From a virus, in the IMG/VR virus record IMGVR_UViG_3300027754_000055, positions 32,001 through 96,000 of that record: a stretch of 64,000 bases of DNA. One strand, written 5' to 3'. Below are positions 2,375 through 62,039 of the stretch, piece by piece. The translations under genes and the position numbers were made by a program. A model generated the notes under the pieces. It saw only the letters and a program-made list of their open reading frames with translations, did not search any database and was not told the DNA's origin. The stretch's first letter is position 1, and each line of letters begins with the position of its first letter.

Positions 2375-2665
2375 TTAAGTCGAAACTTTAGCTTTTTTTG
2401 TATTTGCTACAAATTGTTTGCGGCCACCTTTTGACTTTGTTTTCTTTTTCTTTGCGGTAGCTGCACGCTGTTTTTTGCTCAATGAATAAGCTTTGGCGGC
2501 AGGAAGACAACGATCTGGATTTGATTTATTCTTGCTTGTCCCACATTCACCAGCAACCTTACCAGAAGAGGTTACACGTTTCCATTTTTGCTTGAACCAT
2601 TTGCGTAAATCTTCTTCAATCATCTCTTTGATGATAGTTTTAATAGATTCTTCTAGTGATTCCAT
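2375..2665 (-). CDS. Small basic phage protein with IKTIIKE leader
   Basis: MESLEESIKTIIKEMIEE then LRKWFKQKW...CG...RCLP. Confidence 0.75.
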   Translation of the reverse strand: MESLEESIKTIIKEMIEEDLRKWFKQKWKRVTSSGKVAGECGTSKNKSNPDRCLPAAKAYSLSKKQRAATAKKKKTKSKGGRKQFVANTKKAKVST

Positions 2666-2898
2666 AATTTCATGATTTCTTCTTTGATAATATCTTTGAG
2701 TTGATCATAAGATTCATTAGCTTTCTTCTTTTTTCTCCAGCCGCCACCTTTGCTTTTATACCATCTTGAAGCCCAAGCCATCTTATAAGCAGAATGTTTT
2801 GTAAATTTTTTACTTGCAGCAGCTTTTGCTCTAGACCACAAGGCAGGATTTGTTGGAGAGTTCTCGCCCTCTTCAAGATATTCTAGTTCGTTTTCCAT
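2653..2898 (-). CDS. Small basic phage protein with C-terminal LKDIIKE tag
   Basis: PTNPALWSRAKA...WYKSKGGGW; TAATTA 6 nt before ATG. Confidence 0.75.
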   Translation of the reverse strand: MENELEYLEEGENSPTNPALWSRAKAAASKKFTKHSAYKMAWASRWYKSKGGGWRKKKKANESYDQLKDIIKEEIMKLWNH

Positions 2899-2997
2899 AA
2901 CACTTAATTAGTTTTATATAAAAAAATAATTGGATTCTAATTAATATGTGTACAAAAAGAAAATAAACTTGTTTAATATACGAAAGGAAGAATAATC

Positions 2998-3504
2998 ATG
3001 CATTTCAACTCATTCGTATATTGGCTAAACGGGTTTTTTGAGCTTTCGGGGGCAACCACACTAGACGAAAAACAGGTTAAAATTATCAAAGAGCATATTG
3101 CTCTGACTTTAACAAAGGTCACTCCGACATCATATGAAAGCCCATTAACTATACCGCCATTTGATGTTGAGCGGACCATTAAAAACATGGGCCGTAACGC
3201 ATATATTCAAGAACAAATAAGATTATTCCCAGGTGTTATTTGTGGAAGTTGTGGAAAAACTTGCTCAGAAGAAGGTGGCACTTGTAAGGTTTGCCAAAAA
3301 AATGAATCCCTTAAAGCAGTACCCGCCGAAAATATATTAAATCTTACTACTCACCTATGCACAGAATGTGTAGTCATCTGTCCAAACTCACGAAAAATTG
3401 AAGATCATATTGGTCGCACTTGCCCATTATGTAAAGTGTATTGCAAAAATTTAGAAGCAAAAGATCTGCCAATCATTAATGTTCCAACGATCCTAACCTG
3501 CTAA
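2998..3504 (+). CDS. Hypothetical protein with Cys-rich (Zn-ribbon-like) C-terminus
   Basis: FVYWLNGFFE N-terminus; several CxxC; AAGGA RBS. Confidence 0.75.
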   Translation: MHFNSFVYWLNGFFELSGATTLDEKQVKIIKEHIALTLTKVTPTSYESPLTIPPFDVERTIKNMGRNAYIQEQIRLFPGVICGSCGKTCSEEGGTCKVCQKNESLKAVPAENILNLTTHLCTECVVICPNSRKIEDHIGRTCPLCKVYCKNLEAKDLPIINVPTILTC

Positions 3505-3547
3505 CAAAACATAAAACCATCTACTTATGCTACATAAGGATGATGCC

Positions 3548-4033
3548 ATGAAACTTAGTGAAAAAAAATTATTAAAACAAATTATTAAAGAATCTATTTT
3601 GGTGAAAATCATTGGTGATGTGAACGAAGGCCATATAAGCAATATGGCAAGAGGCATTAAGGGTTTATTTAGTAAGTCAGAAGATGTACCAAGAAGCGTA
3701 CCAAAAGATGTACCAGAAAAAGTTAAAGATGTTCAAGATATTTCAAAAATTCCCGAAACAAGAAGTCTATGGCTACTTATCGGAAATGAAATAAAAGCAC
3801 AAAATGACGATTCAGAACGCACAGGATCAGTTTACCGTTGGATGGGTTTTTCTGATGAATATATAGAGAAATTTGGTAAAATATTTAAAAATCTTTTACC
3901 GCAACACATGGAACTAGTATTAAATTATTACAAATCTTTTAAAGATTCCGATTATGGGCCAGGATTTGACTCTATGATCGAAAAATTTCAAGAAATATAT
4001 GAGATCAGGTCAGCATCTAAAGGTAGATATTGA
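3548..4033 (+). CDS. LKQIIKE-leader protein (putative virion internal protein)
   Basis: MKLSEKKLLKQIIKE; TACTTA at 3522 and AAGGA RBS favour start 3548. Confidence 0.7.
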   Translation: MKLSEKKLLKQIIKESILVKIIGDVNEGHISNMARGIKGLFSKSEDVPRSVPKDVPEKVKDVQDISKIPETRSLWLLIGNEIKAQNDDSERTGSVYRWMGFSDEYIEKFGKIFKNLLPQHMELVLNYYKSFKDSDYGPGFDSMIEKFQEIYEIRSASKGRY

Positions 4034-4043
4034 TAATTTTCCA

Positions 4044-8247: not shown

Positions 8248-8276
8248 TTGACTGGTTATGTATGTAATGCTATCAT
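8248..8276 (+). promoter_or_regulatory. Sigma70-like promoter
   Basis: TTGACT-17-TATCAT with extended TG. Confidence 0.7.
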
Positions 8277-8290
8277 CAATCCAAGTACAA

Positions 8291-11257
8291 ATGGAAATTA
8301 AAAATAAAATTGAAGTAATTTATGGTAATGCTATCCAAGATGGCAACTTTATGTTTAAGGTTTCTGAGCCTTCTAGGATCATTCCAAGAGTAAATGATTC
8401 AAAATATCATTCTCTAAAAGAATGGCAAGTAGAAGCCGTCACTCAACTGAATAATGAAAAATATTTCATTATTCAAGCCCCTACAGGGGCAGGGAAAAGC
8501 TATGGGCTTTGCTCGCTAGCATATGAAAAAATTAAAAATGATAGGCAATTAAAAGTTGTATTTGCAGTGCCGCAAACAATTATTGCCAGCGGATTCGTTG
8601 ATAAAACTTTTGTGAGTGCCTTTGGAGATAAAGTAGATTTTAACCCGCACGCAAATCTTTGCAGTGACTATACAAACGAAGGCACTGTCAGAGATTTTCT
8701 TGGGTTTCTCGGCAATACTGCCCCGGTTTCTGTAGGGATGGAAAGCCAAAACGTTGTCATTTGTACGCATGCAACTCTCGTTGCAGCATTCAAGGCAAAT
8801 AGAAGTTTATTCAACAATGTTCTCGTTGTCGTGGATGAAGCGCACCATGTTAGAAACGAAATTGTATACACAGATTTAGAAGACGATGGAGAACTTGAAT
8901 CGGAAAATGAGTGCGATGAAGAGGATGAAAATCAAGAGCTAATTTGGAATGGCCTTGGAGAAATTGTAAGTTACGCACTAGAAGATAATAATCAAGATAA
9001 AAATTTCCAGATTGGATTAACGACGGCAACATTTTTTCGTAGTGATTCCGCATCAGTTGTTCCGGCTGGGACCAAGAATGATAAATTTTCTACATTCTTT
9101 CTACCATTCGATAAATTTTTTAATTCACTGACGCATCTGCGTTCACTTTCATTTAATTCCGTATTCTATTCAAAAGATTACTGGCGGCAAATTGACGAAT
9201 GCATCAAGACACAGGGCGAGTTTAAAAAATCAATATTCTTTATTCCATCAGTAATGTCACATTCTTCGTCTGGTAAGAAAAATGATGTCTTAAATATCAT
9301 TAAAGGCATTTCCGGTAAGCAATTTATTGTTGAGGATATCGATTATCAATTCCTAAATGAATCATTGAAAAAAACGACATATGATAATCATATTTATATT
9401 AGCATTACTAGAAACGGAGAAACACTGCGCTTTGTAGATTTTGTCTCAGAGCCAAATCGCAAGGAAAAAAAGAAAATTATCAATGACTCTCACGATGCCG
9501 ACTTAGAAGAAAATATCCATGGTATTATTGCCCTTGGAGTTTTCAAAGAAGGGGCTTCGTGGAAATGGGCAGAGAACTGCTATATCATTGGAGAGCGTAG
9601 ATCGCTAGTAGAGCTTGTGCAAATTAACGGTAGACTCTATCGTGATGTGGCCGGTAAAGAATCAGTGTCTACATTTTATTTTGTAGATCGATATTTTGAT
9701 CCAACAAGCACTGAAGATGAATTCTTGGAACGTTCAAACACAACGTTTAAAACTGTCTTTGTTTCAATGATGATCGAAGAGATTCTTATGCCGCCTTGTA
9801 AAATCACAAGGCGAATTAATGTAGTAAATAAAATCACTGGTGCGCTAGAGGAAGTTGTCAAAGAGTATCATCCAATCCTTGAACTCGCTGGTAGCCCTGA
9901 TAAGGCCATTACACTTAAGAAAAACATTATTGATACTTTTAATGAATTATCCATAAAGGAGTTAACTTCAGCTGAAATTAATAAAGGTGGAGATGTTGTA
10001 CTTGGTAAAATTCAAAATCTTGTAAAAAAAGCTATTATAATCAATCTTGAAAAAAACAAAACATACGCCGAAGAATCTATTGAGGATGCCGTTAAAGAAA
10101 TCTATGATTTTACGGCAAAAAGAAATAACGCTACTAAAAACACAAAGCCGAAAGAGGCATTAAAAGAGCCAATGTTTGATGTGAATGATATCAATTTTGA
10201 TATTATGGACAAAACACCACTTGGGCTCTGGTTCGCTTGTTCTTCGGGTAATGTGGGAGTTAAAGATTTCGAGAAACTACGTACCGCTTTTTGTTCTGGA
10301 ATTGATGCTCAAATAAATTCAGTAAAAGAAATTATAGATTTTAAGCAGAAAAATGGAAATTTGCCTTCTCAGGGATCTAAAGACCAAACAGAAAAGAAAA
10401 TGGGGAACAAGCTTTCCGATTTAAAAAAAGCTAAGCAAGGAAAGGGTAGAAGTAAGTTTTATGCAGAAACACATGATTATGCAAAAGGTCGTGGTTGTCC
10501 CGATATGTTTGAGGTTGAAACGGAAGAAACAAGAAAAGCAGACCAAATAGAATCAGTAAAAGAAATTATAGATTTTAAGGAAAAAAATGGAAAGTGGCCT
10601 TCTCACGCTTCTAAAGACCAAACAGAAAAGAAAATGGGGAACAAGCTTTCCGATTTAAAAACAGCCAAACAAGGAAGGGGTAACAGTAAGTTTTATGTAG
10701 AGACACAGGAGTATATAAAAGATCGTGGTTATCCTGATATGTTTGAGGTTGAAACAGAAGAAACAAGAAAAGCAGACCAAATAGAATCAGTAAAAGAAAT
10801 TATAGATTTTAAGGAAAAAAATGGAAAATATCCTTCGGAAAAATCTAAAGATCCAACAGAAAAGAAAATGGGGAAAAAGCTTTCCGATTTAAAATCAGCC
10901 AAGCAAGGAAGGGATAGGCGTGGGTGCAAGTTTTACCCAGAGACACAGGATTATGCAAAAGGTCGTGGTTATCCTGATATGTTTGAGATTGAAACGGAAG
11001 AAACAAGAAAAGCAGACCAAATAGAATCAGTAAAAGAAATTATAGATTTTAAGGAAAAAAATGGAAATTTGCCTTCTCAGGGATCTAAAGACCAAACAGA
11101 AAAGAAAATGGGGAAAAAGCTTTCCGATTTAAAAAAAGCTAAGCAAGGAAAGGGTAGAAGTAAGTTTTATGCAGAAACACATGATTATGCAAAAGGTCGT
11201 GGTTATCCTGATATGTTTGAGGTTAGGAAGCAAAAAACAACTGGGTCTATAAAATGA
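8291..11257 (+). CDS. SF2 DEAH helicase with four C-terminal helicase-associated-like repeats
   Basis: APTGAGKS, DEAHH, TAT, QINGRLYR; promoter position favours ATG 8291. Confidence 0.88.
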   Translation: MEIKNKIEVIYGNAIQDGNFMFKVSEPSRIIPRVNDSKYHSLKEWQVEAVTQLNNEKYFIIQAPTGAGKSYGLCSLAYEKIKNDRQLKVVFAVPQTIIASGFVDKTFVSAFGDKVDFNPHANLCSDYTNEGTVRDFLGFLGNTAPVSVGMESQNVVICTHATLVAAFKANRSLFNNVLVVVDEAHHVRNEIVYTDLEDDGELESENECDEEDENQELIWNGLGEIVSYALEDNNQDKNFQIGLTTATFFRSDSASVVPAGTKNDKFSTFFLPFDKFFNSLTHLRSLSFNSVFYSKDYWRQIDECIKTQGEFKKSIFFIPSVMSHSSSGKKNDVLNIIKGISGKQFIVEDIDYQFLNESLKKTTYDNHIYISITRNGETLRFVDFVSEPNRKEKKKIINDSHDADLEENIHGIIALGVFKEGASWKWAENCYIIGERRSLVELVQINGRLYRDVAGKESVSTFYFVDRYFDPTSTEDEFLERSNTTFKTVFVSMMIEEILMPPCKITRRINVVNKITGALEEVVKEYHPILELAGSPDKAITLKKNIIDTFNELSIKELTSAEINKGGDVVLGKIQNLVKKAIIINLEKNKTYAEESIEDAVKEIYDFTAKRNNATKNTKPKEALKEPMFDVNDINFDIMDKTPLGLWFACSSGNVGVKDFEKLRTAFCSGIDAQINSVKEIIDFKQKNGNLPSQGSKDQTEKKMGNKLSDLKKAKQGKGRSKFYAETHDYAKGRGCPDMFEVETEETRKADQIESVKEIIDFKEKNGKWPSHASKDQTEKKMGNKLSDLKTAKQGRGNSKFYVETQEYIKDRGYPDMFEVETEETRKADQIESVKEIIDFKEKNGKYPSEKSKDPTEKKMGKKLSDLKSAKQGRDRRGCKFYPETQDYAKGRGYPDMFEIETEETRKADQIESVKEIIDFKEKNGNLPSQGSKDQTEKKMGKKLSDLKKAKQGKGRSKFYAETHDYAKGRGYPDMFEVRKQKTTGSIK
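10312..11225 (+). repeat. Four tandem coding repeats (spacing 234, 234, 240 bp)
   Basis: TCAGTAAAAGAAATTATAGATTTT at 10319, 10553, 10787, 11027. Confidence 0.95.
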
Positions 11258-13183: not shown

Positions 13184-13657
13184 TTAATCAATAACCGGAA
13201 AAACTTTGCTTGAATCCCAAATAACCACTTCTCTTAACACGCCATTAAAATATTGAAAAATAGCATCATAGCCTTGCTTCGCAGCAGCACTACTTATTTC
13301 TTTACCAACATATCCTTTTAGTTCTTCTATTTTTTCTACTTTGTTTTGCGCTTTTTCTTCTGGCATTCCTAATTGCACTAATGCCATAACACACGGATGC
13401 TCGTATCTATTTTTACCCATATGGATTTCTAAAGGGTTTTTAATATCCAAGTAAGCTTCTGTAATTTTACCGCCAGATTGGGTAGCGTATTGCTCTGCAA
13501 CTTCTCTGATTGGAGTAAAGTAAGCACCAGATCCTAAAGCTCCCCTTCCAGTTGTTTTAATTGGCGTTTTACCATCCCAGTTTCCACCGTGATATACAGG
13601 ACCAAATTTACTGGTTTTGTCATTGATATTTTCAAAAAGAATAGATAATAATTTCAT
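13184..13657 (-). CDS. ADP-ribosyltransferase-like (ART-PolyVal-type) protein with ILFE leader
   Basis: VYHG...GSGAYFT...AEQYA...YLDIKNPL...GYDAI...EVVIW; TAGTTA upstream. Confidence 0.7.
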   Translation of the reverse strand: MKLLSILFENINDKTSKFGPVYHGGNWDGKTPIKTTGRGALGSGAYFTPIREVAEQYATQSGGKITEAYLDIKNPLEIHMGKNRYEHPCVMALVQLGMPEEKAQNKVEKIEELKGYVGKEISSAAAKQGYDAIFQYFNGVLREVVIWDSSKVFPVID

Positions 13658-13749
13658 GATAGCTATAACTAGGTTATTTTTATGATTTACAAATTTTCAA
13701 CATTGTGATATAGTGTTCTATATCTTCTGATGTCAGTAAAAAGGAAATT

Positions 13750-13961: not shown

Positions 13962-14507
13962 TCAAACCATTTTTGAAACTGGTGTTTTGCTCCAAAAACG
14001 GCAAGACCAATATTTTGGCGTTGTGCGATCTTTAGCTTGGCTACATTTATGTCTTGCACGGAATGATTTACGACGTTTTGGATCTTGACGCTTGATACGC
14101 ATGTTTGGATCACCAAAATTTACTTTTTTGATGTTTCCTGTTTTGGGATCTTTAACAAACACTTTGTATTTTTTTACATCGCCCTTGGAAGGTTTTCCAA
14201 CGGACACTTCTTTACCTTTATATTTTGCTTCTTGTAAAATACTAACATGCTCATTCATGTAAGCTACAAGACATCCCTCACAAACAGCTTCCCCTGTTTC
14301 ATCAAGGCTGGCTCCAAGCTCTAGAATTTCTGTTTCTTCATTTTCAGGCTCATCTGATCCAAATATTAAATTTTTACCATGAAATTTTTTCTTTGGTTCA
14401 CCGTGAATACTTTTTTCATGCTCATGATCATGTTTTTCACTTGAATATTCTAATTCATGAATGGATTCAAGAATTGCTAGAATCAAATTTTCTTTTGAGT
14501 TTTTCAT
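13962..14507 (-). CDS. Conserved phage protein, acidic leader plus basic C-domain
   Basis: ILQE then AKYKG...KKVNFGDP...RRKSFRARHKC...YWSC; TACTTA upstream. Confidence 0.8.
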   Translation of the reverse strand: MKNSKENLILAILESIHELEYSSEKHDHEHEKSIHGEPKKKFHGKNLIFGSDEPENEETEILELGASLDETGEAVCEGCLVAYMNEHVSILQEAKYKGKEVSVGKPSKGDVKKYKVFVKDPKTGNIKKVNFGDPNMRIKRQDPKRRKSFRARHKCSQAKDRTTPKYWSCRFWSKTPVSKMV

Positions 14508-14606
14508 ATTTTACCTACTGTTGATTATCAATAAGTACTGAATCGTGTTTTATTTTCATGAGCCAAATTTACGTTTCAATTCATGAATAGCTGATAACCG
14601 ATTAGA

Positions 14607-22341: not shown

Positions 22342-22347
22342 TATAAT

Positions 22348-22533
22348 ATGAATAATTTAAAAGAAAAAGTAATGGAAAATAAGTTTTTGCTATCTCTACT
22401 AAATCAAATGAATCCATCAGAAAAGGAAAACACCCTATCTGTTATCAATGGATTGCTTGAAGAAATGCAAGGCAAATCAGAAGGTTTGACCAAAGCAATC
22501 CAAGAGGCTTCTAAAAAACAGCCACCTAAATAG
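22348..22533 (+). CDS. Small hypothetical protein
   Basis: ORF in tail operon. Confidence 0.65.
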   Translation: MNNLKEKVMENKFLLSLLNQMNPSEKENTLSVINGLLEEMQGKSEGLTKAIQEASKKQPPK

Positions 22534-22553
22534 TTATCGTAAGATAAACTATT

Positions 22554-25868: not shown

Positions 25869-25873
25869 CGGAA

Positions 25874-26167: not shown

Positions 26168-26210
26168 AAAATATATCTTATGATTCTTTATGTACTTAAG
26201 ATAAATTACA

Positions 26211-37353: not shown

Positions 37354-37421
37354 GTTATGTTTAGTAAATATTATCTTTATTTTTAAAGTGAAATTTGATT
37401 AAATTATTTGTTATTATAATC

Positions 37422-42769: not shown

Positions 42770-42788
42770 ATTTATAAGTATTAGCAAC

Positions 42789-43199
42789 ATGGAAAAAACT
42801 ACAAATAATCATACAACTCACATTCTTGGCTTTCATATTATTTTTTGTCCAAAATATAGAAGCATGCTTTCCGAAGGTCATTGTATTGCTTTGAGAAAAT
42901 GTTTTTATGAAATAGCAGAAGAATATGATTGGAAAATAGAAAGTTTAGAAGTTGACTTGGATCATGTAAACTTATTTATCCAAGCGAACCCTACAGATAG
43001 TCCGGCTGATATTGCCAGAACATTTAAAAGCATATCAGCTATATTTTTATTTACAAAATTTCCCAAATTAAAGGAAAGAAAGTTTTGGGGTTCTGGTCTA
43101 TGGTCGAGAGGGACATATTATTCAACTGTTGGCAAGGTTGCAGAAGACGTTGTAAGGAATTATATTGAATCGCATTCATCTCACAGGACGAGCCTGTGA
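42789..43199 (+). CDS. tnpA: Y1 HUH transposase TnpA (HUH reads HVN)
   Basis: HIIFCPKYR, DHVNL, FKSISA, LWSRGTY, VRNYIE. Confidence 0.9.
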   Translation: MEKTTNNHTTHILGFHIIFCPKYRSMLSEGHCIALRKCFYEIAEEYDWKIESLEVDLDHVNLFIQANPTDSPADIARTFKSISAIFLFTKFPKLKERKFWGSGLWSRGTYYSTVGKVAEDVVRNYIESHSSHRTSL

Positions 43200-43447
43200 G
43201 TTTTCTGCTCATATCAATAAAAATCTAATCATTTTATTTGATAGCGGAACCATTGGATTATATCTCGGTAGCACAAACGAACAAATTTTTGAAAGTGAAG
43301 AACCAGATCATATTTTTCTGATATCTGATAAAATTATTCATTTTTCATATTTTTTCCATGAGCATGTTAATTTCGTTCTTGTATCTGGACAAAATGTAAA
43401 AAATATTATCATTTGACAACCGAAAAAAATCTATATAATATCGTTAT

Positions 43448-45529: not shown

Positions 45530-45817
45530 ATAAAAACTGAAATCCGGCACAAATGCACTTATTTGGATAATTTTCTTGATCCTTTTACGTGGAATAGAAT
45601 CAGCAACAAAGAAATGGTTTGCTGATTTCTCTTGCATATTGATGCCTTCCATGTCTATTACAACAATAGAAAGATTCTGATGTTTTTCCATTAGCCGTGG
45701 ATCTTCCAATATCTCTTCCATTGCGACTCCAATAGAGTTTGTAAGTTTAGCTTGTGGATATATGCCAGCTGTCGTCAGCAATAAACCGGGGTTATTTGTA
45801 ACATGATAATAGATCAT
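45530..45817 (-). pseudogene. ART-fold-like protein gene truncated by IS
   Basis: MIYYHVT...GIYP...VID...IP...I pattern; AAGGA RBS. Confidence 0.55.
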
Positions 45818-47457: not shown

Positions 47458-48195
47458 TCAGCGGCGAAAGTTTCTGATCCCTGCTCGCATTGGATGAACG
47501 CCGCCCTGCAAAGCTTCATCGGATATCTTTTGCTGGAACTCCAAGTTGATGAACTTACCAAACACACCGGAGCTATAGTTCTTTAATACAATGCCTTCGG
47601 CTATTTTGGAACCAAACGAAGATATACGGTCAGCCAATGTTGGAAGCTCTTCTGGGGAAACAATGCCCTTCCAAACAAGAGGAACAACAGGCGCTCCCAC
47701 TTCTTCGCACACCGCTTCCTTTTCTTCTCTGTTTAGCCACTTGCCTGTTCCTTGACCTTTTTGATATGGAGGCTCAAACTCTCCATCCAACACATCATAG
47801 CAAACAGTCATATCCGGCCAACCACCAACGGAGTATGGAACGTTCTCATATTCAACGCTGTGTTTGATCGATAGGGATTCGCAGAAAAAGGTAAAACCAC
47901 CTTTGACGATAATCATTGGGTGTCCGTCAACTTTTTCTTCCACGACCAACTCTGAGCCATCGAAGAGGCTGTCCATCTCTTCATCGGTCATTGTTGGTTT
48001 GCCGGGAATGCGAGCTTTTGCTTTGTCGATCTCTTCGTTGCCAACAGCAACCTTTTCTTCTTTTGTTCTTGGGTCAACAATCTTGGCAACAGGAATGCGG
48101 CGAACTCCTGTTATGTCTTTATAACCAGCATTGTCAATAACTTGCATTGGCTCCTCGACGGATTCATTGAACAGTATAGGGAATATTTTTATCAT
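47458..48195 (-). CDS. RNA ligase-like nucleotidyltransferase with ILFNE leader
   Basis: Motif I EEKVDG, FCE, CYDV, VPLVW, AEGIVLK, GKFI; TATTTA 5 nt before ATG. Confidence 0.8.
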   Translation of the reverse strand: MIKIFPILFNESVEEPMQVIDNAGYKDITGVRRIPVAKIVDPRTKEEKVAVGNEEIDKAKARIPGKPTMTDEEMDSLFDGSELVVEEKVDGHPMIIVKGGFTFFCESLSIKHSVEYENVPYSVGGWPDMTVCYDVLDGEFEPPYQKGQGTGKWLNREEKEAVCEEVGAPVVPLVWKGIVSPEELPTLADRISSFGSKIAEGIVLKNYSSGVFGKFINLEFQQKISDEALQGGVHPMRAGIRNFRR

Positions 48196-48210
48196 ACCGA
48201 TAAATACAAT

Positions 48211-50663: not shown

Positions 50664-51003
50664 TTTTTCTTTATTTCTTTATTGCATGAGCATGATAGAT
50701 ATAAAAGCAAATGTCAACTACAATTATTTTGAATGTTCTGAGTCGAAATATAGCTTTGCCAAAAAACCTCCTGTTCTAAGGCCGATATTCCAGAATATCA
50801 AACAAAAAACTCCAGTATTTAATATTATTTTTAGCAAACCCGGTGTCATGTTTGATAACCAAAAAAGTAAAATCATCAACTCAATCATGTTCAATCTATT
50901 ATTAATCATGTTTTCTTATGCGATTGTAGCCGTTTAAAAACAATAAATAAATCATAAAACTAAGAATATTTTCAGCTAGCTAACATCCATTATACTTATT
51001 GTT

Positions 51004-51720
51004 ATGAGAATATTTGATATATTATTTGAACAACATGATATTAGTGCAAAAAAACCACGTAGAACAATTTCAGAGGTTGGCTCTAAAGGAATTGTTCCAG
51101 TGCATCTTGAAAATGATCAGCGAGTTTTACTTTTAAATAGCAAAAACATCGCAGACGCCACAAAAAATGCAAAAAGTAAAATTCAATTTATGAGAATGTT
51201 TATAAATGGCGTTGCAGAAAAATATACAGATTCAACTCCGTATGACGTAAATGCTCAATGTATAATCGGACAACTTAATTATAAAAAAATCTCAAATGGG
51301 CTCTATAAAGTCAATTCTGTAGCTGCAATAAAAAGTTACGGCTCTTTGCTATATGAATTATTAATGCAGTTTATCTCCGCAGAAAACGGTTATATTACTC
51401 CATCGGTTCCAATAGAACAAAAAGCACTGGACGTTTATCATAGATTTATGAACAGATCTGACATAGAGAAAAAACAAATACAAGATATCAATAGAGTCGC
51501 ATATTTCGTTCGCAAAAAACAAATCAGCAATCAATACCCAGAATCAAAACAAGAAAATAAACCATTTTATTTAGGTTTTCAAATGCAAGGCGCACCATCA
51601 TTCACTCCAATAAAAGAAATACTTGGATCAGCAATGGATGAGTTTAATGTTTCCGATCAAGAAATAGCTAAAGCAGCAAGCGATTGGTTTAATAAAAGAT
51701 ATAAGCCAGAAGATCAGTGA
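51004..51720 (+). CDS. GNAT-like protein with ILFE leader
   Basis: YKVNSVAAIKSYGSLLYE...ITPS...ALDVY resembles a GNAT acetyl-CoA loop; TACTTA 5 nt before ATG. Confidence 0.5.
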   Translation: MRIFDILFEQHDISAKKPRRTISEVGSKGIVPVHLENDQRVLLLNSKNIADATKNAKSKIQFMRMFINGVAEKYTDSTPYDVNAQCIIGQLNYKKISNGLYKVNSVAAIKSYGSLLYELLMQFISAENGYITPSVPIEQKALDVYHRFMNRSDIEKKQIQDINRVAYFVRKKQISNQYPESKQENKPFYLGFQMQGAPSFTPIKEILGSAMDEFNVSDQEIAKAASDWFNKRYKPEDQ

Positions 51721-52540: not shown

Positions 52541-52606
52541 TCATCATTCCATCCATCTACCTAATTTTTCTGTTCATGATATAAAAAATTACCATAATTA
52601 ATTGAT

Positions 52607-53830
52607 ATGAACAATATCAATCTTGCGGTAAAAAAACTAAATTCCCTCCTCATTGAATCAAAACAATCAATTGTAAATCTAGGATTCCCAGAAGTTATTG
52701 CTTCCATACTATATGAAAAATATGGAAAAAATGCTTTCGTGGTATCAAAATGGTATAAAGATTATTTTACAGCCGATTATGAGGCCATGGATAATAAAAC
52801 ATGGTGGAGAAGAGCAAACACAGAATACTCATTAAAACAACTTGGCTTAACTGATTTAATCATGCTTTATGATGCTGCTAAAATATCATTCGAAGAATAT
52901 AATAAAATAAAAAAACAACTTGAACTTGAAGTAGATGATACTCAAGAGTTTAATAAATCAGAAAAATTACAAGATCTAAGAGAAGAAATAAGTAGAGATT
53001 TTTTCAAAAAAGTATTTTTCAGTAGAAACCTAATCATCGGTATCGACTCAGGTAAAATCATTGACCTTCATCCATATGCAAATTTAACATTTCAAGAAGC
53101 AAACGAAAAATATGAAAAGAAATCAATTTTTAGCGATAAAACACCAATAAAAAAATATCCAAATGGATGGCGCTGGGTTGACGCAGGTGCCAAATGTGAC
53201 TTGGTGGGTGGAATGATGAAAAATTGTGGCAGCACAGGCATAATGAGCATGGATAAAGATCGTACCATGCTAACATTATTCGATGAACAAAATATTCCAC
53301 ATGTGGTTGCTACATATTCACCAAATGAAAAAAGAATATCTGGTGTAGAAGGTCAAGCAAGCACCGCAGTAAAAAATGAATATGCGGATTATGTAATTGA
53401 TTTAGTAAAAACATTGGGCGCAGAACTTGATTATGATAGAGAAAAATCAAAATTCCTAAAACTCAAATATGCCTTGGGAAACAAATTAAAATCACTAAAA
53501 AAAATCCCTACTGAAAGCGATTACGACGAATATTATGTGCTCGTAACAAGTGATAATAAGACATATTATACAAACAGCTATGAGATGATATCAAAAGAAG
53601 ATGTAGATAAAATCAATTTCAAAATGTTTAAGCCGCAGCCAAAAAACATTGTGGAAAAAACTAAATTGGTCTTCGGATACTACAATAAAGAAAAGATATT
53701 AGATGCAAATCCAGATATAAAATACATTCGTGACTCTCAGTTTATAAATCAAATAAACCTACAAGAAAACGTAAAAGGTATAATAAAATCCGTAATTAGA
53801 GAGATGTTGCTAGGGATTGATAGTAGATAA
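52607..53830 (+). CDS. PcfJ-like domain protein with leader and C-terminal KGIIK tag
   Basis: GWRWV...GGMMKNCG...LFDEQNIPHV; N-term LLIE; C-term LQE-NVKGIIKSVIRE; TAATTA upstream. Confidence 0.6.
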   Translation: MNNINLAVKKLNSLLIESKQSIVNLGFPEVIASILYEKYGKNAFVVSKWYKDYFTADYEAMDNKTWWRRANTEYSLKQLGLTDLIMLYDAAKISFEEYNKIKKQLELEVDDTQEFNKSEKLQDLREEISRDFFKKVFFSRNLIIGIDSGKIIDLHPYANLTFQEANEKYEKKSIFSDKTPIKKYPNGWRWVDAGAKCDLVGGMMKNCGSTGIMSMDKDRTMLTLFDEQNIPHVVATYSPNEKRISGVEGQASTAVKNEYADYVIDLVKTLGAELDYDREKSKFLKLKYALGNKLKSLKKIPTESDYDEYYVLVTSDNKTYYTNSYEMISKEDVDKINFKMFKPQPKNIVEKTKLVFGYYNKEKILDANPDIKYIRDSQFINQINLQENVKGIIKSVIREMLLGIDSR

Positions 53831-54060
53831 TATCGCTCGCTCTACTGGATAGCTTCTTCAACAAGCTCCTATAAAGCTCATTAGCGGCCTCTTCTAGCTC
53901 TTCCTCATAACTAATCAATCTTTCGTATAGCCAGCTTCCCTGGCATATCTGGGGCGGTTCTGAAGCACCTCGTGTGCTTTCACAATTCACTGCCAAAAAA
54001 ATACCATGAAAGTTATGACGTATCTCCTGTGTAAAGCGATTTTAGCAAATATTTAATTTT

Positions 54061-56028
54061 ATGACAAAATCGAATATACAGGAACAATTAAAAAAATCTA
54101 TTAAAGATATAATTAAAACTAGAATATTTTTAACAGAGGCCCCTGTTGATGTGTGGTTGCGTAACAAGGCGAAAAAAGAGCCAACACCAGTTTCCAAAGA
54201 GGAAGCTGAGCCTATATTTAAAAAATTTGAAAAATATAAATCATATTTCACGATATTAGATTCGACACAGTATTCTTTTTCCGAATTGAAATTTAGCGTA
54301 TTATCTGCCGAAATGCTTGAAGAATTTAGGATAAAAGCAACCAGCGGAAAACATATAATACAATGGTTTCTTACACGGATTAAAGAAATACCAAATCTAT
54401 CATGGAGATCCATTCAAGAAGACTATCTACCGTTACTAAAATTATATATTAAAAATACCTCCATGCTGAAGCCTTTAGAAGAATATAAATCATTGTCTGA
54501 TTTACATTATGATATTGATAGTAAAAAGACAACAATCACTAAAGAAGCATCTAGTGAGGAGAAAGATGTTTTTTATCGTGAAAACGGTTGGGAATTGGCA
54601 ATGCCCCATACAACAGAGGCCAGTTGTGATTTAGGTGCTGGCACAACTTGGTGCACGGCAAGAAAAGGTGAAGGGGAGCAGAATCTATTTCTTAATTATG
54701 TCGGTATGCCAAGCAGTAGGACTGTACTGTTTTATGTTTTGAAAACAGATTCTGACCCAATCAAAAATCCATGGAGCAAACTTTCTGTTGGGTTTATAAA
54801 TGGTGAGCCTGCTTTTGATCGAGGATTTGGAACAGAAACTGTAAATGCGGCCAATGAGAGTTTGACCGAAGATAAATTTTTTAAGCTATTAGGAACGCCG
54901 ACAGCAATAAATTTCTTAGAGAAAATGAAAGAACGGATAAACCAGATATCTGGCAAGCATCCTGCTTCCAAAGAATGGGAAGTATTGGCGCAAAATCCTG
55001 AAAAATTAAAACAAAAGATGGATAGCTTCCGTAAGCCAGAACTTCTTGAAGACTTTTTACGAAATATATTATCAGTTAAAACAATAACACCAGAAGTTTT
55101 ATCTTTGCTAGCATCTAATAAAAATAGTTATGTACGTGAACGAGTGGCGGCAAATGAAAATACATCTACAAAAACACTACAACAACTTTCAACAGACGAT
55201 GAATACAATGTTCGCTCACGAGTAGCCCTCAATATAAAAACATCGTCCCAAATTCTAATTGAACTCGCCAGAGATCCACGAGAAATTGTTTCTACTCAAT
55301 TATTTTTTAATAATAATACGCCCACTGAAGCTTTAAGGATTATTATAAGCAAGCACGGAATTGATGATATGCAAACAACACTGGCTGCTCATCCAAATGC
55401 ACCAACTGATGTATTGGCCGTTTTATCAAATAGCTCTAACGCTTTTGTGCGTGCCGCCGTTGCAGGTAATTCAAACACGGATAGTATTACATTGGATAAA
55501 TTATTAATAGACAAACACTCGATGGTTTTTCAAGCAGCACGAAATAATAAAAATTTGTCACTTGATACACTGGAAAAATTAGCGCTGAGTAAAGAATGGA
55601 AAATGCGTAAAATAGCAGCCGGTAGTCAACTAATTAATCCAAATACGTTAACAAGACTATCTAAAGATAATATTGTCGATGTGCTGCTGAGTGTTGCAAG
55701 AAATAGCAAAACACCATATCAGACATTATTAGAACTTTCAGAACATCCAGAAGAAGAAGTCAGAATTAATGTAGCCTATAACAAAAAAGCCTCGCCAGAT
55801 ATTTTAAAAAAATTATCAGACGATAGCGATAAAGATGTATTAGTGGGTGTTGCAAGCAATCTTAATACACCTCTGGAAATTTTAAATTTGTTATCATCTA
55901 GCCCTGATAAAATCACTTCTAATGCAGCAAAATTAACAATTAAGGAGTTAGAAAAAGTTGTAATAACAGAATCAATTATATTAAATAATATAATTCAAAA
56001 ACTATCACGAGTTTCCAGCAGACTCTAA
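54061..56028 (+). CDS. IKDIIK-leader protein with ASCxxGxGTxWC domain and LRV/HEAT-like repeats
   Basis: PHTTEASCDLGAGTTWCTA; ~24-aa VRxxVAxNxNT repeats; TATTTA 5 nt before ATG. Confidence 0.75.
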   Translation: MTKSNIQEQLKKSIKDIIKTRIFLTEAPVDVWLRNKAKKEPTPVSKEEAEPIFKKFEKYKSYFTILDSTQYSFSELKFSVLSAEMLEEFRIKATSGKHIIQWFLTRIKEIPNLSWRSIQEDYLPLLKLYIKNTSMLKPLEEYKSLSDLHYDIDSKKTTITKEASSEEKDVFYRENGWELAMPHTTEASCDLGAGTTWCTARKGEGEQNLFLNYVGMPSSRTVLFYVLKTDSDPIKNPWSKLSVGFINGEPAFDRGFGTETVNAANESLTEDKFFKLLGTPTAINFLEKMKERINQISGKHPASKEWEVLAQNPEKLKQKMDSFRKPELLEDFLRNILSVKTITPEVLSLLASNKNSYVRERVAANENTSTKTLQQLSTDDEYNVRSRVALNIKTSSQILIELARDPREIVSTQLFFNNNTPTEALRIIISKHGIDDMQTTLAAHPNAPTDVLAVLSNSSNAFVRAAVAGNSNTDSITLDKLLIDKHSMVFQAARNNKNLSLDTLEKLALSKEWKMRKIAAGSQLINPNTLTRLSKDNIVDVLLSVARNSKTPYQTLLELSEHPEEEVRINVAYNKKASPDILKKLSDDSDKDVLVGVASNLNTPLEILNLLSSSPDKITSNAAKLTIKELEKVVITESIILNNIIQKLSRVSSRL

Positions 56029-56853
56029 TATCTCTGCCATTTTAGAGTAAAGCACAGTGGGATCATTGTTAGATAATCCGGCACGCTGACCGTCTGATAT
56101 CTCAATAACAATCCATGATCCATCTGCCGTTTTAGCTACATCAAGTGTGTAAAATCTAATTTGATCACCAATACGCATAATAGCTTCTTCCAAGAAATCT
56201 TTTGGGATTTGATCCGCAGAAGTCGGTTTCGCATCACAATCTTCCATCACCCAATAAAATCCAGTAGATAATACCTTGCCATCCAAAACAAAAATACGAT
56301 ATTCGGTTGAAATAGGGCATGATTGACCGTCCCATGATAACCTCTCAAGCGGTACATATTCTCTGGCCACAATATCTTGACCCTCAAATCGTGAATCCGC
56401 ATTCATGGAAATCATTAAATCAATTGCTGCCCTCTTGTTTTCAGCAAACATCTTTTTCCAGCAGCTTTTGTCTGCCTTGGAACCTTTAAGAATAAAGGAT
56501 GTATTTTCTGGTAAAGTAGAGAAATCTGTATAAGTTTTAGGAGTTAATTCCTGTAGATCCCATGACCATGATGGACAGCTATCTGCATAAACATATTCAC
56601 GCAATCCATTTAATAGGACTCCACCAAGACGTTTTACATCACGCTGAACACGTTTAGGCCAAGGCCACATCGTATGGCGGGCAATTACCAAATCGCCATC
56701 CTGGATATCCAATATTGACTCTGTAATCACCCATGAGGTATGATTTTTAACAGCTTCCAATTCTCCGTCATCAAGGATAGATGGATCATGCAAAAATATA
56801 ATTTTAGCCATTTCACTGCAACTCCGGTTCTTCTGCGTTAAAAACAACATCAA
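56005..56853 (-). CDS. ATP-grasp (R2K/DUF4343-like) protein
   Basis: TPKT, FILKG, VAREYV, EYRIF, FYTLDVA, WIVIEISDG. Confidence 0.8.
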   Translation of the reverse strand: MMLFLTQKNRSCSEMAKIIFLHDPSILDDGELEAVKNHTSWVITESILDIQDGDLVIARHTMWPWPKRVQRDVKRLGGVLLNGLREYVYADSCPSWSWDLQELTPKTYTDFSTLPENTSFILKGSKADKSCWKKMFAENKRAAIDLMISMNADSRFEGQDIVAREYVPLERLSWDGQSCPISTEYRIFVLDGKVLSTGFYWVMEDCDAKPTSADQIPKDFLEEAIMRIGDQIRFYTLDVAKTADGSWIVIEISDGQRAGLSNNDPTVLYSKMAEILESAGNS

Positions 56854-57649
56854 TAGGATTTTTACAATATCTTACCGTCGCAGACTTAAGAACAAACAAT
56901 TCATTTCGTTCAAAAGTAGCACCGGAACTAGCAAATCTAGCTTGATGTTTTTCTGGTAATAATTCCAACTCTTCTGTGGTGAATGGCTTCTTTACTAGCC
57001 TTCGCTGAATAGCCGTGCCATATTTTTGATTCTCGGATAGAGATTCCCAAGAATGTTTTTCTGCGGCAACGATCATGTTACGCTGTTCATAATCACTCTT
57101 TCCATGTAACTCATTTGAACTAAAAAATGACCTTGCATAAGCTTGAACGGAATTCTTTGAAGCGTCCTGTTCACGCCATGATACTGCTATACATGCATCG
57201 CCCATAGAAGGAACATTGAATACACGACAATCAAATGTAGCATGCTTTTTACCATTGAAAACAGCACAACCAGATTTTTCTAATAAGCTATTAAATGTAA
57301 TACTAGCAAATGCCGCAAGACAACTTACTAATTTTTGAACACGACCACCAAAAATAAGCTGACCACCGTTTTCTACATCTGGATGTAGTACAAGAGTAAT
57401 CTCATCCGATTGCGTATAGCCATAACATGCGCCAGATTCTTGAATTAGAGCTTTTGTCGTGTCTATAAAAGCTTTGTGCAATACAGTGTCAAATGGTCGA
57501 TGAAAATTTTTTGTAAAAGTATGAAATGCTCTTCCATCAAGACGAATGACTACGGGCAATTTCGCATCCAATAAATGCTCTGCGCTCTTTTCCCATTTCT
57601 TAACCTCATCACCAAGAGGATCTTTACTGATAATTTTAATTTCTTCCAT
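56813..57649 (-). CDS. thg1: tRNA(His) guanylyltransferase Thg1-like protein
   Basis: IRLDGRAFH, YTQSDEI, GGRVQKL, FDCR, WREQDA.KNS. Confidence 0.93.
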   Translation of the reverse strand: MEEIKIISKDPLGDEVKKWEKSAEHLLDAKLPVVIRLDGRAFHTFTKNFHRPFDTVLHKAFIDTTKALIQESGACYGYTQSDEITLVLHPDVENGGQLIFGGRVQKLVSCLAAFASITFNSLLEKSGCAVFNGKKHATFDCRVFNVPSMGDACIAVSWREQDASKNSVQAYARSFFSSNELHGKSDYEQRNMIVAAEKHSWESLSENQKYGTAIQRRLVKKPFTTEELELLPEKHQARFASSGATFERNELFVLKSATVRYCKNPIDVVFNAEEPELQ

Positions 57650-57672: not shown

Positions 57673-58242
57673 TCAATATAAATCATATAATTTAGCTAAT
57701 GATTCGTAGAATATCTTCCTACAATCTAATGCATCCTTTAGTGCCGAATGAGCATTGACCTTATCTAATCCGTGATAATCACGCATTGAATCCATTGAAA
57801 GATTTTGCTCACCATCAAGGCCCCATGCCAAATACGAAGAAGTTGTTGTGTCAATTGCATATCTTAGAAAGGTAGGTTTTATGCCAAGCACTGCATATTC
57901 TGCGGCAATAAAACCTAAATCAAAATTAGGATTCTGGCCAATGATCTTTCCAAAAGACAATAAAGAATATAATTCATCAGCAATACTGACAAAAGAAACA
58001 GCTTCCTTGTCCCATACTTGTTGCAAATAACCATTAACTCCCAAAGCGATTGGGTCTGCTTCCACAATATTTTTTGGTATAATCTTCCTACACCATTCTT
58101 CAACAATAATACCAGGAGCATTATAAGGAGCCTCAATAAGTTCCTTAATAACAGCAATCTCTAGAATTTCATGTCGATTGCAATCAAGCCCAGTAGTCTC
58201 AATATCCAGAAATATACGATATTTTTTATTTTTAATAATCAT
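57673..58242 (-). CDS. DEDDh 3'-5' exonuclease (DnaQ-like)
   Basis: FLDIETTG, GQNPNFD, AHSALKDA. Confidence 0.9.
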   Translation of the reverse strand: MIIKNKKYRIFLDIETTGLDCNRHEILEIAVIKELIEAPYNAPGIIVEEWCRKIIPKNIVEADPIALGVNGYLQQVWDKEAVSFVSIADELYSLLSFGKIIGQNPNFDLGFIAAEYAVLGIKPTFLRYAIDTTTSSYLAWGLDGEQNLSMDSMRDYHGLDKVNAHSALKDALDCRKIFYESLAKLYDLY

Positions 58243-59859: not shown

Positions 59860-59899
59860 ATTAATATATAGGTTCGAATCTATAATTTTGATATTTTTG

Positions 59900-59972
59900 T
59901 ACGCCCAGTAGGAGTCGAACCTACATAATACTGCTTAGAAGGCAGTTGCCTTAGCCATTAGACTATGGGCGC
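59900..59972 (-). tRNA. tRNA-Arg(UCU)
   Basis: GCGCCCA/TGGGCGT acceptor, anticodon loop CTTCTAA, GTAGG-TTCGACT-CCTAC; no encoded CCA; TTGACA-17-TATAGT promoter at 59996-60024. Confidence 0.93.
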
Positions 59973-60258
59973 AATCACTATCAGTGACAAGAGTTACTAT
60001 AGCTGATAGTTACCCAGATGTCAAACTGTTCTTTGTTTTTTAAATTTATTGACGATGGACGGAATTAATATTATGGCCTATCGTTCTTTCAGTAAAATAA
60101 AACAATATACAATGACTAATAAAACATGAAGAGAAAGAGCAAAGAGAAGTATTAGGTCATCTTTGTCTTTTAATTTCTTCATTTTTCTTTACCGAGAGAA
60201 AAATAAAAGGACACAACTAACACGATTGAAAGCAATATCCATTTAATATTTGACATAA

Positions 60259-61485
60259 TTATTTTTTATCTTTTTTTGCTAATTTTGCTAATTTATCGAA
60301 TAGTTTAGTTTGCATGATAACATCAAATTTTTGTGGTTTGCCATTATCATATGGGATATAATTTTCTTCTGGCTCAAGTGGTTCTATTTCTTTTAGATCA
60401 CGTTCTTCTGTGCCATGATCAAATTTCTTAACAATAGAAGCAAAACCGCCTGTTCCATATGGTTTTTCAGGCATTTTTTTATCTAATTCTGCTGGTAGAT
60501 AATCCACTAATTTTCTTTTGGTTGATTCTTTATCGGATTTTGACATTTTAATTTCCTTTGATTCGTTTCGGTAGTAGCCGGGGCCTGAACCTTTTTTATA
60601 AATATCGACTGATCCAGGGACATGTTTTACTGGATGAGCCACAGTACCCATAAATCCGGCACGTGTTGGTACATCATCTTCTTCGTCTAATTCTTTTTTA
60701 TAGTCTGTTTGCCCGAATTCTTTTTTTATCCAATTCACAGGATTCACCAAATGGTTAAACACGACATCACGGTTAGTTTGGCCTCTGTCTGTGGGGGTTG
60801 TTTCTTTCCAGCGGTTCAATGTTTTATTTCTTTTTTGAGTAAGTTTCAGATTGTTATCTGTAATTTCATCATCCATTGGATCATACATGCTGGTATCTTT
60901 TGAGTTTAGGCTCATGTTTAGCTCTTCTGGTTTGTCATAATGCCCATGACCAAAAGGCTCTCCACGCACGGCTTCACGTCCACCGGGAAGCAATTGTGGT
61001 ACATTATATCTTTCTTCTTCTGGCGCATCAGGATCTCTATCTTCGTCTTCATCATCTGGTATATGCTCTATTGGATTAGATAAAGTATTCATTGCGGGAA
61101 ACCCTTGTAAATCTCTATAGTTTCCATCTGATGGTCCACGCTCAGTGACATAATAATACGAAGGTTCTATATCATTTTCTGGATCTAGCAGTTGGTCACG
61201 AACTTCGTCTTGTCCTGGCAAAAGGTGAGGACGATCATCATATACTTCGGATGATTCCAATGAATCATTTTCATCACGATCCGATCCTTTTTGAGCACGC
61301 ACAGCAGGCCACATAGAAGGCTCATTAGGGAGGTCTTCTTCTGGATCGACCAATCCCGGCCAGATCTCCGAATCTGCCAGCTGATGCCTATTGCCGAAGC
61401 CGTAAGCGCCACCTTGGAACGTACCTGCGCCAGAGAAGTCGCCAGAATTTTCTTTATATAATAATTTGCTAAGTTTTAATGACAT
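60259..61485 (-). CDS. Acidic, likely disordered protein with LLYKE leader (putative head internal protein)
   Basis: D/E/P-rich; TATTTA 5 nt before ATG. Confidence 0.7.
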   Translation of the reverse strand: MSLKLSKLLYKENSGDFSGAGTFQGGAYGFGNRHQLADSEIWPGLVDPEEDLPNEPSMWPAVRAQKGSDRDENDSLESSEVYDDRPHLLPGQDEVRDQLLDPENDIEPSYYYVTERGPSDGNYRDLQGFPAMNTLSNPIEHIPDDEDEDRDPDAPEEERYNVPQLLPGGREAVRGEPFGHGHYDKPEELNMSLNSKDTSMYDPMDDEITDNNLKLTQKRNKTLNRWKETTPTDRGQTNRDVVFNHLVNPVNWIKKEFGQTDYKKELDEEDDVPTRAGFMGTVAHPVKHVPGSVDIYKKGSGPGYYRNESKEIKMSKSDKESTKRKLVDYLPAELDKKMPEKPYGTGGFASIVKKFDHGTEERDLKEIEPLEPEENYIPYDNGKPQKFDVIMQTKLFDKLAKLAKKDKK

Positions 61486-61733
61486 ATGTTTAAATATGCC
61501 AATTGTTGAGGAATGTAATGGTTTTTATATTTTAAAATTTTCTTCAAGAACACCTTGTTCAAATCCAAAATCTAAAATTACTAGTTCTCCACTATTTCTC
61601 ACTCCCCAATTATCTGGCCTTAGATCATGTGCAGAAATTTTGCATCCGATCAGTAGCTTGTCAATTGCTTGCAGGCTTTTCCCGTGAGCGAACTGCTCAT
61701 AAAAATAAAAAAATCCTATATTTATAAAAAAAT

Positions 61734-62039
61734 ATGAAAACTAATTTTAAAAAAGATTTGAAAACAATCATCAAACAAATTTTGTTGGAGATAGGTTTGC
61801 AAGGTATGATACAACTTTCTGCTTTTGATAAAAATATTCAAGCTAATATGCTAGCTGCAATTGAACCGTATAAAACCACAGACCCAGAAAAATATAAAAA
61901 CCTTAAAGGATTAATAGATAAAGATGTTGTTGAAGAACTTCTAAAAAAAGTCGATGACGCCAATAAACCAACCGCAACATTGCCACCCGCCGCAAGAAGT
62001 GATGCTCAACGAGCGGAAATGCGAAAATGGAATAGATAA
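61734..62039 (+). CDS. LKTIIK-leader small protein
   Basis: MKTNFKKDLKTIIKQILLE; TATTTA upstream. Confidence 0.75.
   Translation: MKTNFKKDLKTIIKQILLEIGLQGMIQLSAFDKNIQANMLAAIEPYKTTDPEKYKNLKGLIDKDVVEELLKKVDDANKPTATLPPAARSDAQRAEMRKWNR

Follow-up and report, generated by a model that had tools for sequence, protein, structure and literature searches.

Short terminal tags on unrelated proteins of an uncultured lake phage as candidate capsid-targeting propeptides

A 64,000-nucleotide stretch of DNA from an uncultured lake phage (IMG/VR record IMGVR_UViG_3300027754_000055, positions 32,001 to 96,000; hereafter the window, ~35% G+C) carries ~95 tightly packed genes on both strands, and 13 of these encode mutually unrelated proteins that bear a short tag at one end or the other. 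We consider it fairly probable that these tags are capsid-targeting propeptides of the type known from the internal proteins and Alt of phage T4, and that a prohead protease processes them. The tags fall into two classes, a short leader (type II) and a longer helix (type I). In homologous proteins from other phages, leaders of both classes interchange at a fixed junction and mostly end in hydrophobic-x-Glu, and the long class matches the N-terminus of an undescribed protein family, here called Y, that is encoded next to the prohead protease of related phages.

Terminal tags in the window

An initial annotation had proposed that the first 13 genes below share terminal peptides, and every one of these genes exists and encodes the peptide as stated. 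An arrow marks the proposed cut, TANTTA hexamers are given by position, and genes are named hereafter by their first coordinate.

2375-2665, minus strand: 96-aa protein of no Pfam family; N-terminal type I tag ..SIKTIIKEMIEE↓D
2653-2898, minus strand: 81-aa basic protein; C-terminal type I tag ANE↓SYDQLKDIIKEEIMKL..; TAATTA at 2905-2910
3527-4033, plus strand: 168-aa open reading frame (ORF) of no Pfam family; N-terminal type I tag LLKQIIKESIL..VNE↓G; TACTTA at 3522-3527
13184-13657, minus strand: 157-aa ADP-ribosyltransferase (ART), ART-PolyVal; type II leader MKLLSILFE↓N; TAGTTA at 13666-13671
13962-14507, minus strand: 181-aa protein with a basic Cys/Trp C-terminal module; leader MKNSKENLILAILE↓S; TACTTA at 14532-14537
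35069-35305, minus strand: 78-aa protein (from Met19 of the ORF); type I tag QLKSIIKEAILAE↓I; TATTTA at 35320-35325
35725-37353, minus strand: 542-aa pentapeptide-repeat protein; type I tag NLKSIIKFTVME↓A; TATTTA at 37365-37370
47458-48195, minus strand: 245-aa RNA-ligase-family protein; type II leader MIKIFPILFNE↓S; TATTTA at 48201-48206
51004-51720, plus strand: 238-aa protein of no recognised family; type II leader MRIFDILFE↓Q; TACTTA at 50993-50998
52607-53830, plus strand: 407-aa protein; N-terminal leader ..KKLNSLLIE↓SKQ and C-terminal type I helix LQE↓NVKGIIKSVIREML..; TAATTA at 52595-52600
54061-56028, plus strand: 655-aa LRV/HEAT-repeat protein; type I tag SIKDIIKTRIFLTE↓AP; TATTTA at 54050-54055
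60259-61485, minus strand: 408-aa acidic protein; type II leader MSLKLSKLLYKE↓N, then a Gly/Ser/Tyr-rich stretch; TATTTA at 61491-61496
61734-62039, plus strand: 101-aa protein; type I tag DLKTIIKQILLE↓I; TATTTA at 61719-61724
2057-2368, plus strand: extra candidate, 103-aa protein starting MNQVLEFHLAE↓A; TATTTA 30 nt upstream

The ORF at 3527 probably starts at 3548, and the true start of the ORF at 35069 is probably Met19, at 35305. The gene at 2375 shares 13 nt with the end of 2653, and the two are probably co-transcribed; the mature part of the 2375 product is very basic (net +23), like an internal protein. Pfam matches bear out one cargo label each for ART-PolyVal (13184; PF18760, E 8.6e-13, match from residue 20), RNA ligase (47458; PF09414, E 2.6e-11), pentapeptide repeats (35725; PF00805, E 1.9e-42) and LRV/HEAT repeats (54061; PF01816, E 5.2e-22). 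By contrast, the labels 'PcfJ-like' (52607) and 'GNAT-like' find no Pfam support, and several ART-like enzymes were not confirmed. A DUF5872 match of 2653 is weak and under the cut-off, and a DUF5754 match of 13962 is likewise weak. The extra candidate has the second-best score with the leader matrix described below, but is weak when taken alone. When the tags are trimmed from all 13 proteins and this candidate, the remaining parts have no mutual BLASTP similarity at E<0.01, in agreement with the earlier claim that the tagged proteins are unrelated.

In a greedy set of 98 window genes, the type I core, [LIV]K-x-I-I-[KE], has 8 matches against a mean of 0.46 and a maximum of 4 in 1000 residue shuffles, and these matches lie mostly at protein ends (five within 20 residues of the N-terminus, two within 20 of the C-terminus, one internal). 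The internal match, in a TnpB protein (41630-42790), is probably due to chance, and a ninth type I tag is present on the small ORF at 35069. For the type II core, [LIFVM][LI][FY][NK]?E, there are seven matches in the window, and five of them are located no further than residue 45 (p=0.006). The leaders of the window measure 9-27 aa and end in LFE, LIE, LLE, LTE, LAE, ILE, IEE, VME, YKE, FNE or VNE, so that the hydrophobic-x-E ending claimed for N-terminal tags is found here as well as in the three families of homologues discussed below. With the predicted cuts, the mature proteins would begin at, for example, Asn10 of 13184, Ser18 of 52607 and Ala27 of 54061. Tags had also been claimed at C-termini, which holds for the type I tags of 2653 and 52607, whereas the C-terminal 'tag' of 54061 is weak.

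Nearly all the tagged genes had been said to sit behind a TANTTA motif, and indeed 12 of the 13 have this hexamer 8-32 nt ahead of the ATG, compared with 9 of 80 other window genes (Fisher p=8e-9). The lone tagged gene without a TANTTA of its own is 2375, which overlaps and follows 2653. For many of the tagged genes the promoter is 5-11 nt away from the ATG, and in many the gap after the hexamer is just 5-6 nt, a distance so short that the mRNAs would be nearly leaderless. One may ask whether the likeness among tags might reflect nothing more than composition, or limits that an AT-rich genome sets, at the nucleotide level, on the opening codons of leaderless mRNAs, with no functional peptide at all. 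The low G+C content and the closeness of the promoter are what such an account would call for, as is the AT-richness of Lys, Ile and Leu codons (16/16 core Lys codons are AAA). However, this account is largely refuted, and we regard it as highly improbable, given the excess over residue shuffles, the presence of tags at C-termini as well, and the behaviour of codons and promoters. The Ile and Leu codons of the tag cores vary freely (ATT/ATC/ATA; TTA/CTC/CTT/TTG), which indicates selection on the peptide rather than on the DNA. Furthermore, other TANTTA genes of the window and of G001, the nearest relative found, lack a tag, which is therefore not a by-product of leaderless translation. Finally, the tags are kept in orthologues at 31-45% identity, also in a relative of 46% G+C. 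Within G001, for example, the orthologue of 35725 retains ..LQTLLKALIVLE↓A and that of 60259 has the leader MKLSQILFTNE. Nucleotide-level conservation or a mobile DNA cassette had been considered as the origin of the tags, and both are ruled out by the same free synonymous variation.

Leaders, protease and protein Y in related phages

The portability of the tags is most evident among homologues of the window proteins. At a fixed junction, type I and type II leaders interchange in two unrelated families, the 407-aa family (52607) and the LRV-like family (54061), and a third family, that of the ART, retains type II leaders. Hydrophobic-x-E ends are found on 91 of 101 distinct leaders of the 407-aa family, on 29/29 of the LRV-like family and on 35/39 of the ART family, and most leaders of the three families are 8-28 aa long. 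The 407-aa family has >136 homologues, on contigs up to 374 kb, and its conserved domain always begins at the same Ser-Lys-Gln, preceded by leaders of 2-47 residues of which some are short type II and others long type I. A subset instead carries the type I helix at the C-terminus, with x-Glu ahead of the helix. Type I helices of this family are N-terminal only in 12 members, C-terminal only in 23 and at both ends in none, an exclusion that is suggestive only (Fisher p=0.06, related sequences). Leaders of either type likewise precede a conserved Ala-Pro-x-Asp-x-Trp in the N-terminal half of the 54061 family, several members of which finish in a mirrored hydrophobic tag after a Glu. Of the stand-alone ART homologues, 35/39 have a type II leader, and in 33 a Glu is located at position 8-16, ahead of the Pfam domain.

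The AlphaFold2 (AF2) model of 52607 has a mean predicted local distance difference test (pLDDT) of 89.7, with its C-terminal helix at 81-87, and is compatible with detachable tags but no demonstration of them. This model has no PDB match by Foldseek at E<=0.001, and the protein has no Pfam family. As separate observations, the 407-aa family, which is common among large uncultured phages, contains an N-C-G-S-T-G motif that is conserved, and some of its members and of the LRV-like proteins from other phages bear a third tag flavour, (R/K)-W-x-K-L-A-G-(L/I)-(L/I), at the extreme C-terminus (P0055, P0108, P0165, P0166, P0171 and P0172, with P0055 carrying it in the N-terminal leader too).

The short tag can be compared directly with substrates of the T4 prohead protease gp21. 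An 8-column matrix trained on the leaders of the 407-aa family alone, when scored on 86 T4 ORFs, ranks gp21, gp24, gp22, IPIII and IPII at positions 1, 3, 4, 7 and 8, a likeness that concerns the end of the short (type II) tag only. The real T4 sequences end FIAE↓A in IPII and IPIII, LFDE↓D in Alt and LLRE↓S in gp24.

No prohead protease or scaffold gene was found in the window, but related phages do encode a protease of the expected kind. The alignment of the 407-aa family retrieved 21 IMG/VR loci, and ten viral records encoding the family were searched for the protease; seven of these encode PF03420 (Peptidase S77, the T4 gp21 protease). Among them is G001 (241 kb), which is syntenic with window 16.9-35.1 kb at 40-73% identity. 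The head module of the relatives runs portal, X, protease, Y, Z, coiled-coil scaffold and gp23-like capsid protein, where we use X, Y and Z for conserved genes of no known family, X being the gene between portal and protease. Capsid propeptides of the relatives end ..LNE↓S, ..LME↓A and ..LRE↓A, near the LTE↓A of T4. PHROG and Pfam searches with Y, X and the internal-protein-like genes of the relatives returned no family.

Protein Y provides the link to the long tag. In 6/6 records inspected, Y directly follows the protease, and the long tag is the N-terminus of Y. A hidden Markov model (HMM) built from the eight type I tags of the window alone was run on 1134 proteins from five related records, and it places the Y proteins of G008, G003 and G005 at ranks 2, 3 and 5. 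The best match of all lies in the head/neck module of G001, and 9/11 top matches are N-terminal. A profile of Y finds 482 cluster representatives among 1.84 billion proteins, and in 140 of the best 150 the motif lies in the first 40 residues, followed by a near-invariant Glu-Gly (E↓G) at positions 22-23. In Y, the N-terminal 23 residues are strongly conserved, the middle is rich in Gln and the protein closes with a conserved W-x-x-L-A-F; it is probably disordered. Y is an undescribed and unannotated family encoded next to the prohead protease. Its genes in the relatives include the following.

L074:18248-18634
L050:9829-10245
L064:10015-10665
L032:12913-13464

A complex prediction with the G005 scaffold, Y and a tagged small protein gave a score of 0.00, which speaks neither for nor against binding. 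The idea that the type I helix is that of the T4 core protein gp67 was dropped, as the tag HMM misses gp67 among the T4 frames.

Furthermore, the relatives have arrays resembling the internal-protein genes of T4. In G005, four small genes share a type I N-terminus, with three starting MKITKS.L and one encoding a 2H phosphoesterase. In G003, the start M..(L)IFE↓ is found in ~18 genes; five of these form a tandem array, and an ART and a GNAT are also among them. The strict type I regular expression has no enrichment there. The tag consensus differs phage by phage, as expected if tags co-evolve with a phage-specific partner.

A rival reading places the partner outside the capsid. The shared helix might instead be a docking peptide for a RiPP-like modifying enzyme (RiPP, ribosomally synthesised and post-translationally modified peptide), a chaperone, timed degradation, or late transcription or translation, and the absence of any head gene from the window and the commonness of short amphipathic helices as interaction modules would both fit. 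We consider this quite unlikely. No radical-SAM or other maturase was found among the ~60 window proteins scanned with Pfam and PHROGs, the end of the tag agrees with T4 gp21 substrates, the gene beside the prohead protease opens with the long tag in 6/6 relatives, and the capsid-protein propeptides finish in the same motif.

Promoter class and the proposed route into the head

The distribution of the hexamer beyond the tagged genes provides a further line of evidence. The nine non-tagged TANTTA genes of the window include those for giant proteins and their small neighbours, as follows.

16936-29570, plus strand: untagged TANTTA genes for giant proteins of 1801, 1104 and 1119 aa and for a 97-aa protein; TANTTA 18-32 nt upstream

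This region adjoins the replication genes and is conserved and syntenic in G001, G003 and G008, and the giant-protein orthologues of G001 and G008 are likewise behind TANTTA. The giants have no Pfam, PHROG or PDB match, apart from a sub-threshold DUF6861 match on the 1801-aa protein. A PDB sequence search with the 1104- and 1119-aa proteins came back empty, leads from the ESM Atlas are weak (all <0.9), and a motif search for RNA polymerase was negative. The giants and the 97-aa protein are probably virion components, and the giants may be virion or ejected proteins. Within G001 and G008, TA(G/T/C)TTA is present at the same distance before the large terminase, X, neck genes, giant proteins and tagged genes, and this placement supports the view, from sequence, that TANTTA marks a late or virion gene class.

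If the capsid-targeting reading is correct, the route would begin late in infection, when TANTTA promoters would yield nearly leaderless mRNAs for ~13 unrelated proteins. Each would bear a terminal amphipathic helix, either the 9-12-residue leader 'M..(I/L)(L)(F/Y)E' or the longer 'LK-x-IIKE..I..E', and this helix would dock the cargo into the scaffolding core of the forming prohead. The long tag copies the N-terminus of Y, which is encoded right after the protease, and the cargo probably uses the docking site of Y itself. A serine protease of the T4 gp21 type (Peptidase S77) would then cut after the Glu of hydrophobic-x-Glu and leave the mature protein free in the head, from which it could exit with the DNA at the next infection. 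We infer docking, cleavage after Glu, packaging, ejection and a role in host takeover from T4 and from gene context.

The claim that the tag loads these proteins into the head thus gains from the portability of the tags, their (L/I)-x-E ends, the likeness to T4 substrates, the TANTTA link and the position of Y beside the protease in relatives, whereas the window itself contains no protease, scaffold or capsid gene. Several observations weigh against the capsid-targeting reading. Portal and Y genes are missing from the window along with those just named, so that the defining enzyme is inferred from relatives. The type I helix has no T4 counterpart detectable with the tag HMM. When used alone, the 8-column leader matrix is only ~3-fold enriched at window N-termini (7/98 compared with 2.1% of internal windows), and a broad type II regular expression is not enriched in G001 or G005. 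In the AF2 model of 52607, the N-terminal helix passes unbroken through the proposed cut site (pLDDT 60-68), and the Glu of that site could merely be part of the fold. Cargo of 542-655 aa would be large for ejection. Moreover, the 1104-aa protein and two Y proteins have no tblastn match among 50,697 phage records, which leaves no close cultured relative and hence no virion proteome.

It is also conceivable that the tags are genuine propeptides of the prohead core, but that the tagged proteins serve as assembly or DNA-condensing parts, or are degraded in the head, and are not ejected enzymes that act on the host, in which case 'effector delivery' would overstate the matter. Y and several tagged genes of the relatives do lie within the head/neck module, three of the window proteins (2375, 2653 and 13962) are small and basic, with 2375 the most extreme, and most of the cargo is without a recognisable enzymatic domain; the role of T4 IPII and IPIII is likewise unclear (PMC9026906). 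However, ART-PolyVal, RNA ligase, pentapeptide-repeat and LRV/HEAT proteins are enzymes or DNA-mimic-like repeats with no obvious structural role, the relatives tag a 2H phosphoesterase and a GNAT, and the tagged genes are dispersed among non-structural genes. We therefore judge this alternative unlikely and prefer capsid targeting of cargo that may leave with the DNA.

More tentatively, a two-class address code might operate in a large uncultured clade of the T4 superfamily, many of whose genomes measure 150-390 kb. The long class would copy Y, either class could be used at either end, and the classes could be swapped between families. If this were true, the packaged and injected set could be listed from sequence alone (ART, RNA ligase, 2H phosphoesterase, GNAT, pentapeptide and HEAT-like proteins), and the proteins that an uncultured phage carries into the cell would become predictable in the same manner. 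Such proteins would be the earliest-acting and the most likely anti-defence or takeover factors, and most are without a known family. Y would be a new and widespread head-assembly component whose docking helix is imitated by cargo. The tags would also offer natural short N- and C-terminal packaging signals to try in T4-style protein-delivery vectors, and the capsid-targeting principle of T4, known mainly from T-even phages, would prove to be old and general within the gp21/gp23 superfamily.

Genomic setting and known systems

Other genes of the window include a gp32-like single-stranded DNA-binding protein, an intein-split RecA, a PolA fragment, a helicase, two RNase T-type exonucleases, a Thg1-like enzyme, an ATP-grasp protein, three TnpB genes and many small SH3-like paralogues. 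Those with unusual characteristics are given below.

221-1471 (plus strand), 41630-42790 (minus strand) and 44182-45432 (minus strand): TnpB (OrfB_IS605 / Cas12f-like) genes
109-173, 43166-43230 and 45480-45544: three copies of a 65-nt element near the TnpB genes
8258-11257, plus strand: 999-aa ResIII/DEAD helicase with a C-terminal array of four 234-240-nt tandem repeats (10220-11227) matching pseudomurein-binding repeats, an odd fusion
29597-30721, plus strand: 374-aa protein whose match to the profile of family A DNA polymerases is confined to positions 112-353
32788-35100, plus strand: RecA/UvsX-like recombinase split by an intein with Hint and LAGLIDADG homing-endonuclease domains
56005-57649, minus strand: R2K-clade ATP-grasp protein adjoining a Thg1-like tRNA-His guanylyltransferase
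57673-58242: RNase T-type exonuclease after the ATP-grasp/Thg1-like pair

The RecA/UvsX-like orthologues of G001, G008 and G006 have no intein insert. Same-size orthologues of the 374-aa polymerase-like protein are present in G001, G003, G006 and G008, and the family A polymerase may be split or much reduced. The ATP-grasp, Thg1-like and RNase T block may serve RNA repair or modification, and the tagged RNA ligase is encoded a few kb away.

Window 1-1480 and 44173-45652 are the arms of a perfect inverted repeat of 1480 nt; it ends at a TnpB element and extends past the left edge of the window. The contig (109,652 bp) is incomplete and folds back on itself at two inverted TnpB copies, with outer arms of ~33.5 kb and ~76 kb of unique sequence, and two of the three TnpB genes are the identical inverted copies at this hinge. 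The fold-back is either an assembly artefact at inverted insertion sequence copies or a giant inverted terminal repeat. In IMG/VR, neither an exact 40-mer scan nor a scan by protein pattern turned up a close relative.

Known systems resemble the proposed one to different degrees. Encapsulins use short N- or C-terminal peptides to load unrelated enzymes into a shell of the HK97 fold. The analogy is functional only, since encapsulins involve no DNA, protease step or scaffold and rely on another peptide motif.

Polyvalent or MuF-fused phage proteins with ART-PolyVal and other effector domains have reportedly been described by Iyer and colleagues in 2017. The ART-PolyVal domain is the same as that of 13184, and a homologous one is found in the 'capsid maturation protease and MuF-like fusion protein' of Microbacterium phage Schubert; in both systems the effector would be carried in the head. 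In contrast, 13184 is a stand-alone protein of 157 aa with a 9-residue leader and no fusion to a head protein. Likewise, 43 of its homologues, of 94-200 aa, stand alone, and the fused form occurs only in the distant Microbacterium phage.

In phiKZ, 201phi2-1 and SPN3US, propeptides of head and ejection proteins are cut at (A/S/G)-x-E by a gp21-related protease, and ~80% of SPN3US head proteins are uncleaved (PMC10052503, PMC5694885). These phages share with the proposed system a related protease family, a cut after Glu, a preference for Ser at P1' and many packaged proteins that leave with the DNA. However, most of their propeptides span 111-254 residues, no short address motif is common to them, and residue P3 is small (Ala/Ser/Gly) and not Leu/Ile.

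The nearest precedent is T4, whose capsid targeting sequence (CTS) on IPI, IPII, IPIII and Alt is reportedly taken off by gp21 at (L/I)-x-E, as attributed to Mullaney and Black in 1996. An Asp in place of that Glu reportedly stops processing in T4 while targeting persists. In both cases a short N-terminal propeptide of similar length ends in hydrophobic-x-Glu and is carried by unrelated, partly basic and partly enzymatic proteins that include an ADP-ribosyltransferase, and relatives of this phage encode a gp21-family protease and a gp23-like capsid protein. The T4 propeptides, of 10-19 residues, direct their proteins into the core and are cut off at L/I-x-E, and the CTS is all that the diverse internal proteins have in common (PMC3012670, PMC9026906). 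Alt, itself an ART, owes its packaging to a propeptide of this kind and is trimmed at its C-terminus also (PMC9026906), which gives a precedent for C-terminal trimming. The phage described here differs in the larger share of tagged genes (13/~95 window genes, or ~14%; ~18-20 in the 390-kb relative G003), in a second and longer tag class that has no detectable T4 counterpart and is shared with protein Y, in tags at C-termini as well, and in that one tag class can replace the other at a fixed junction of the same family. It also differs in its PolA-type polymerase, its TANTTA promoter and its membership in an uncultured clade known from sequence alone. The proposed mechanism itself is already known from the CTS and gp21 of T4, and what would be new is its scale, the second tag class shared with Y, the C-terminal tags and the exchange of classes.

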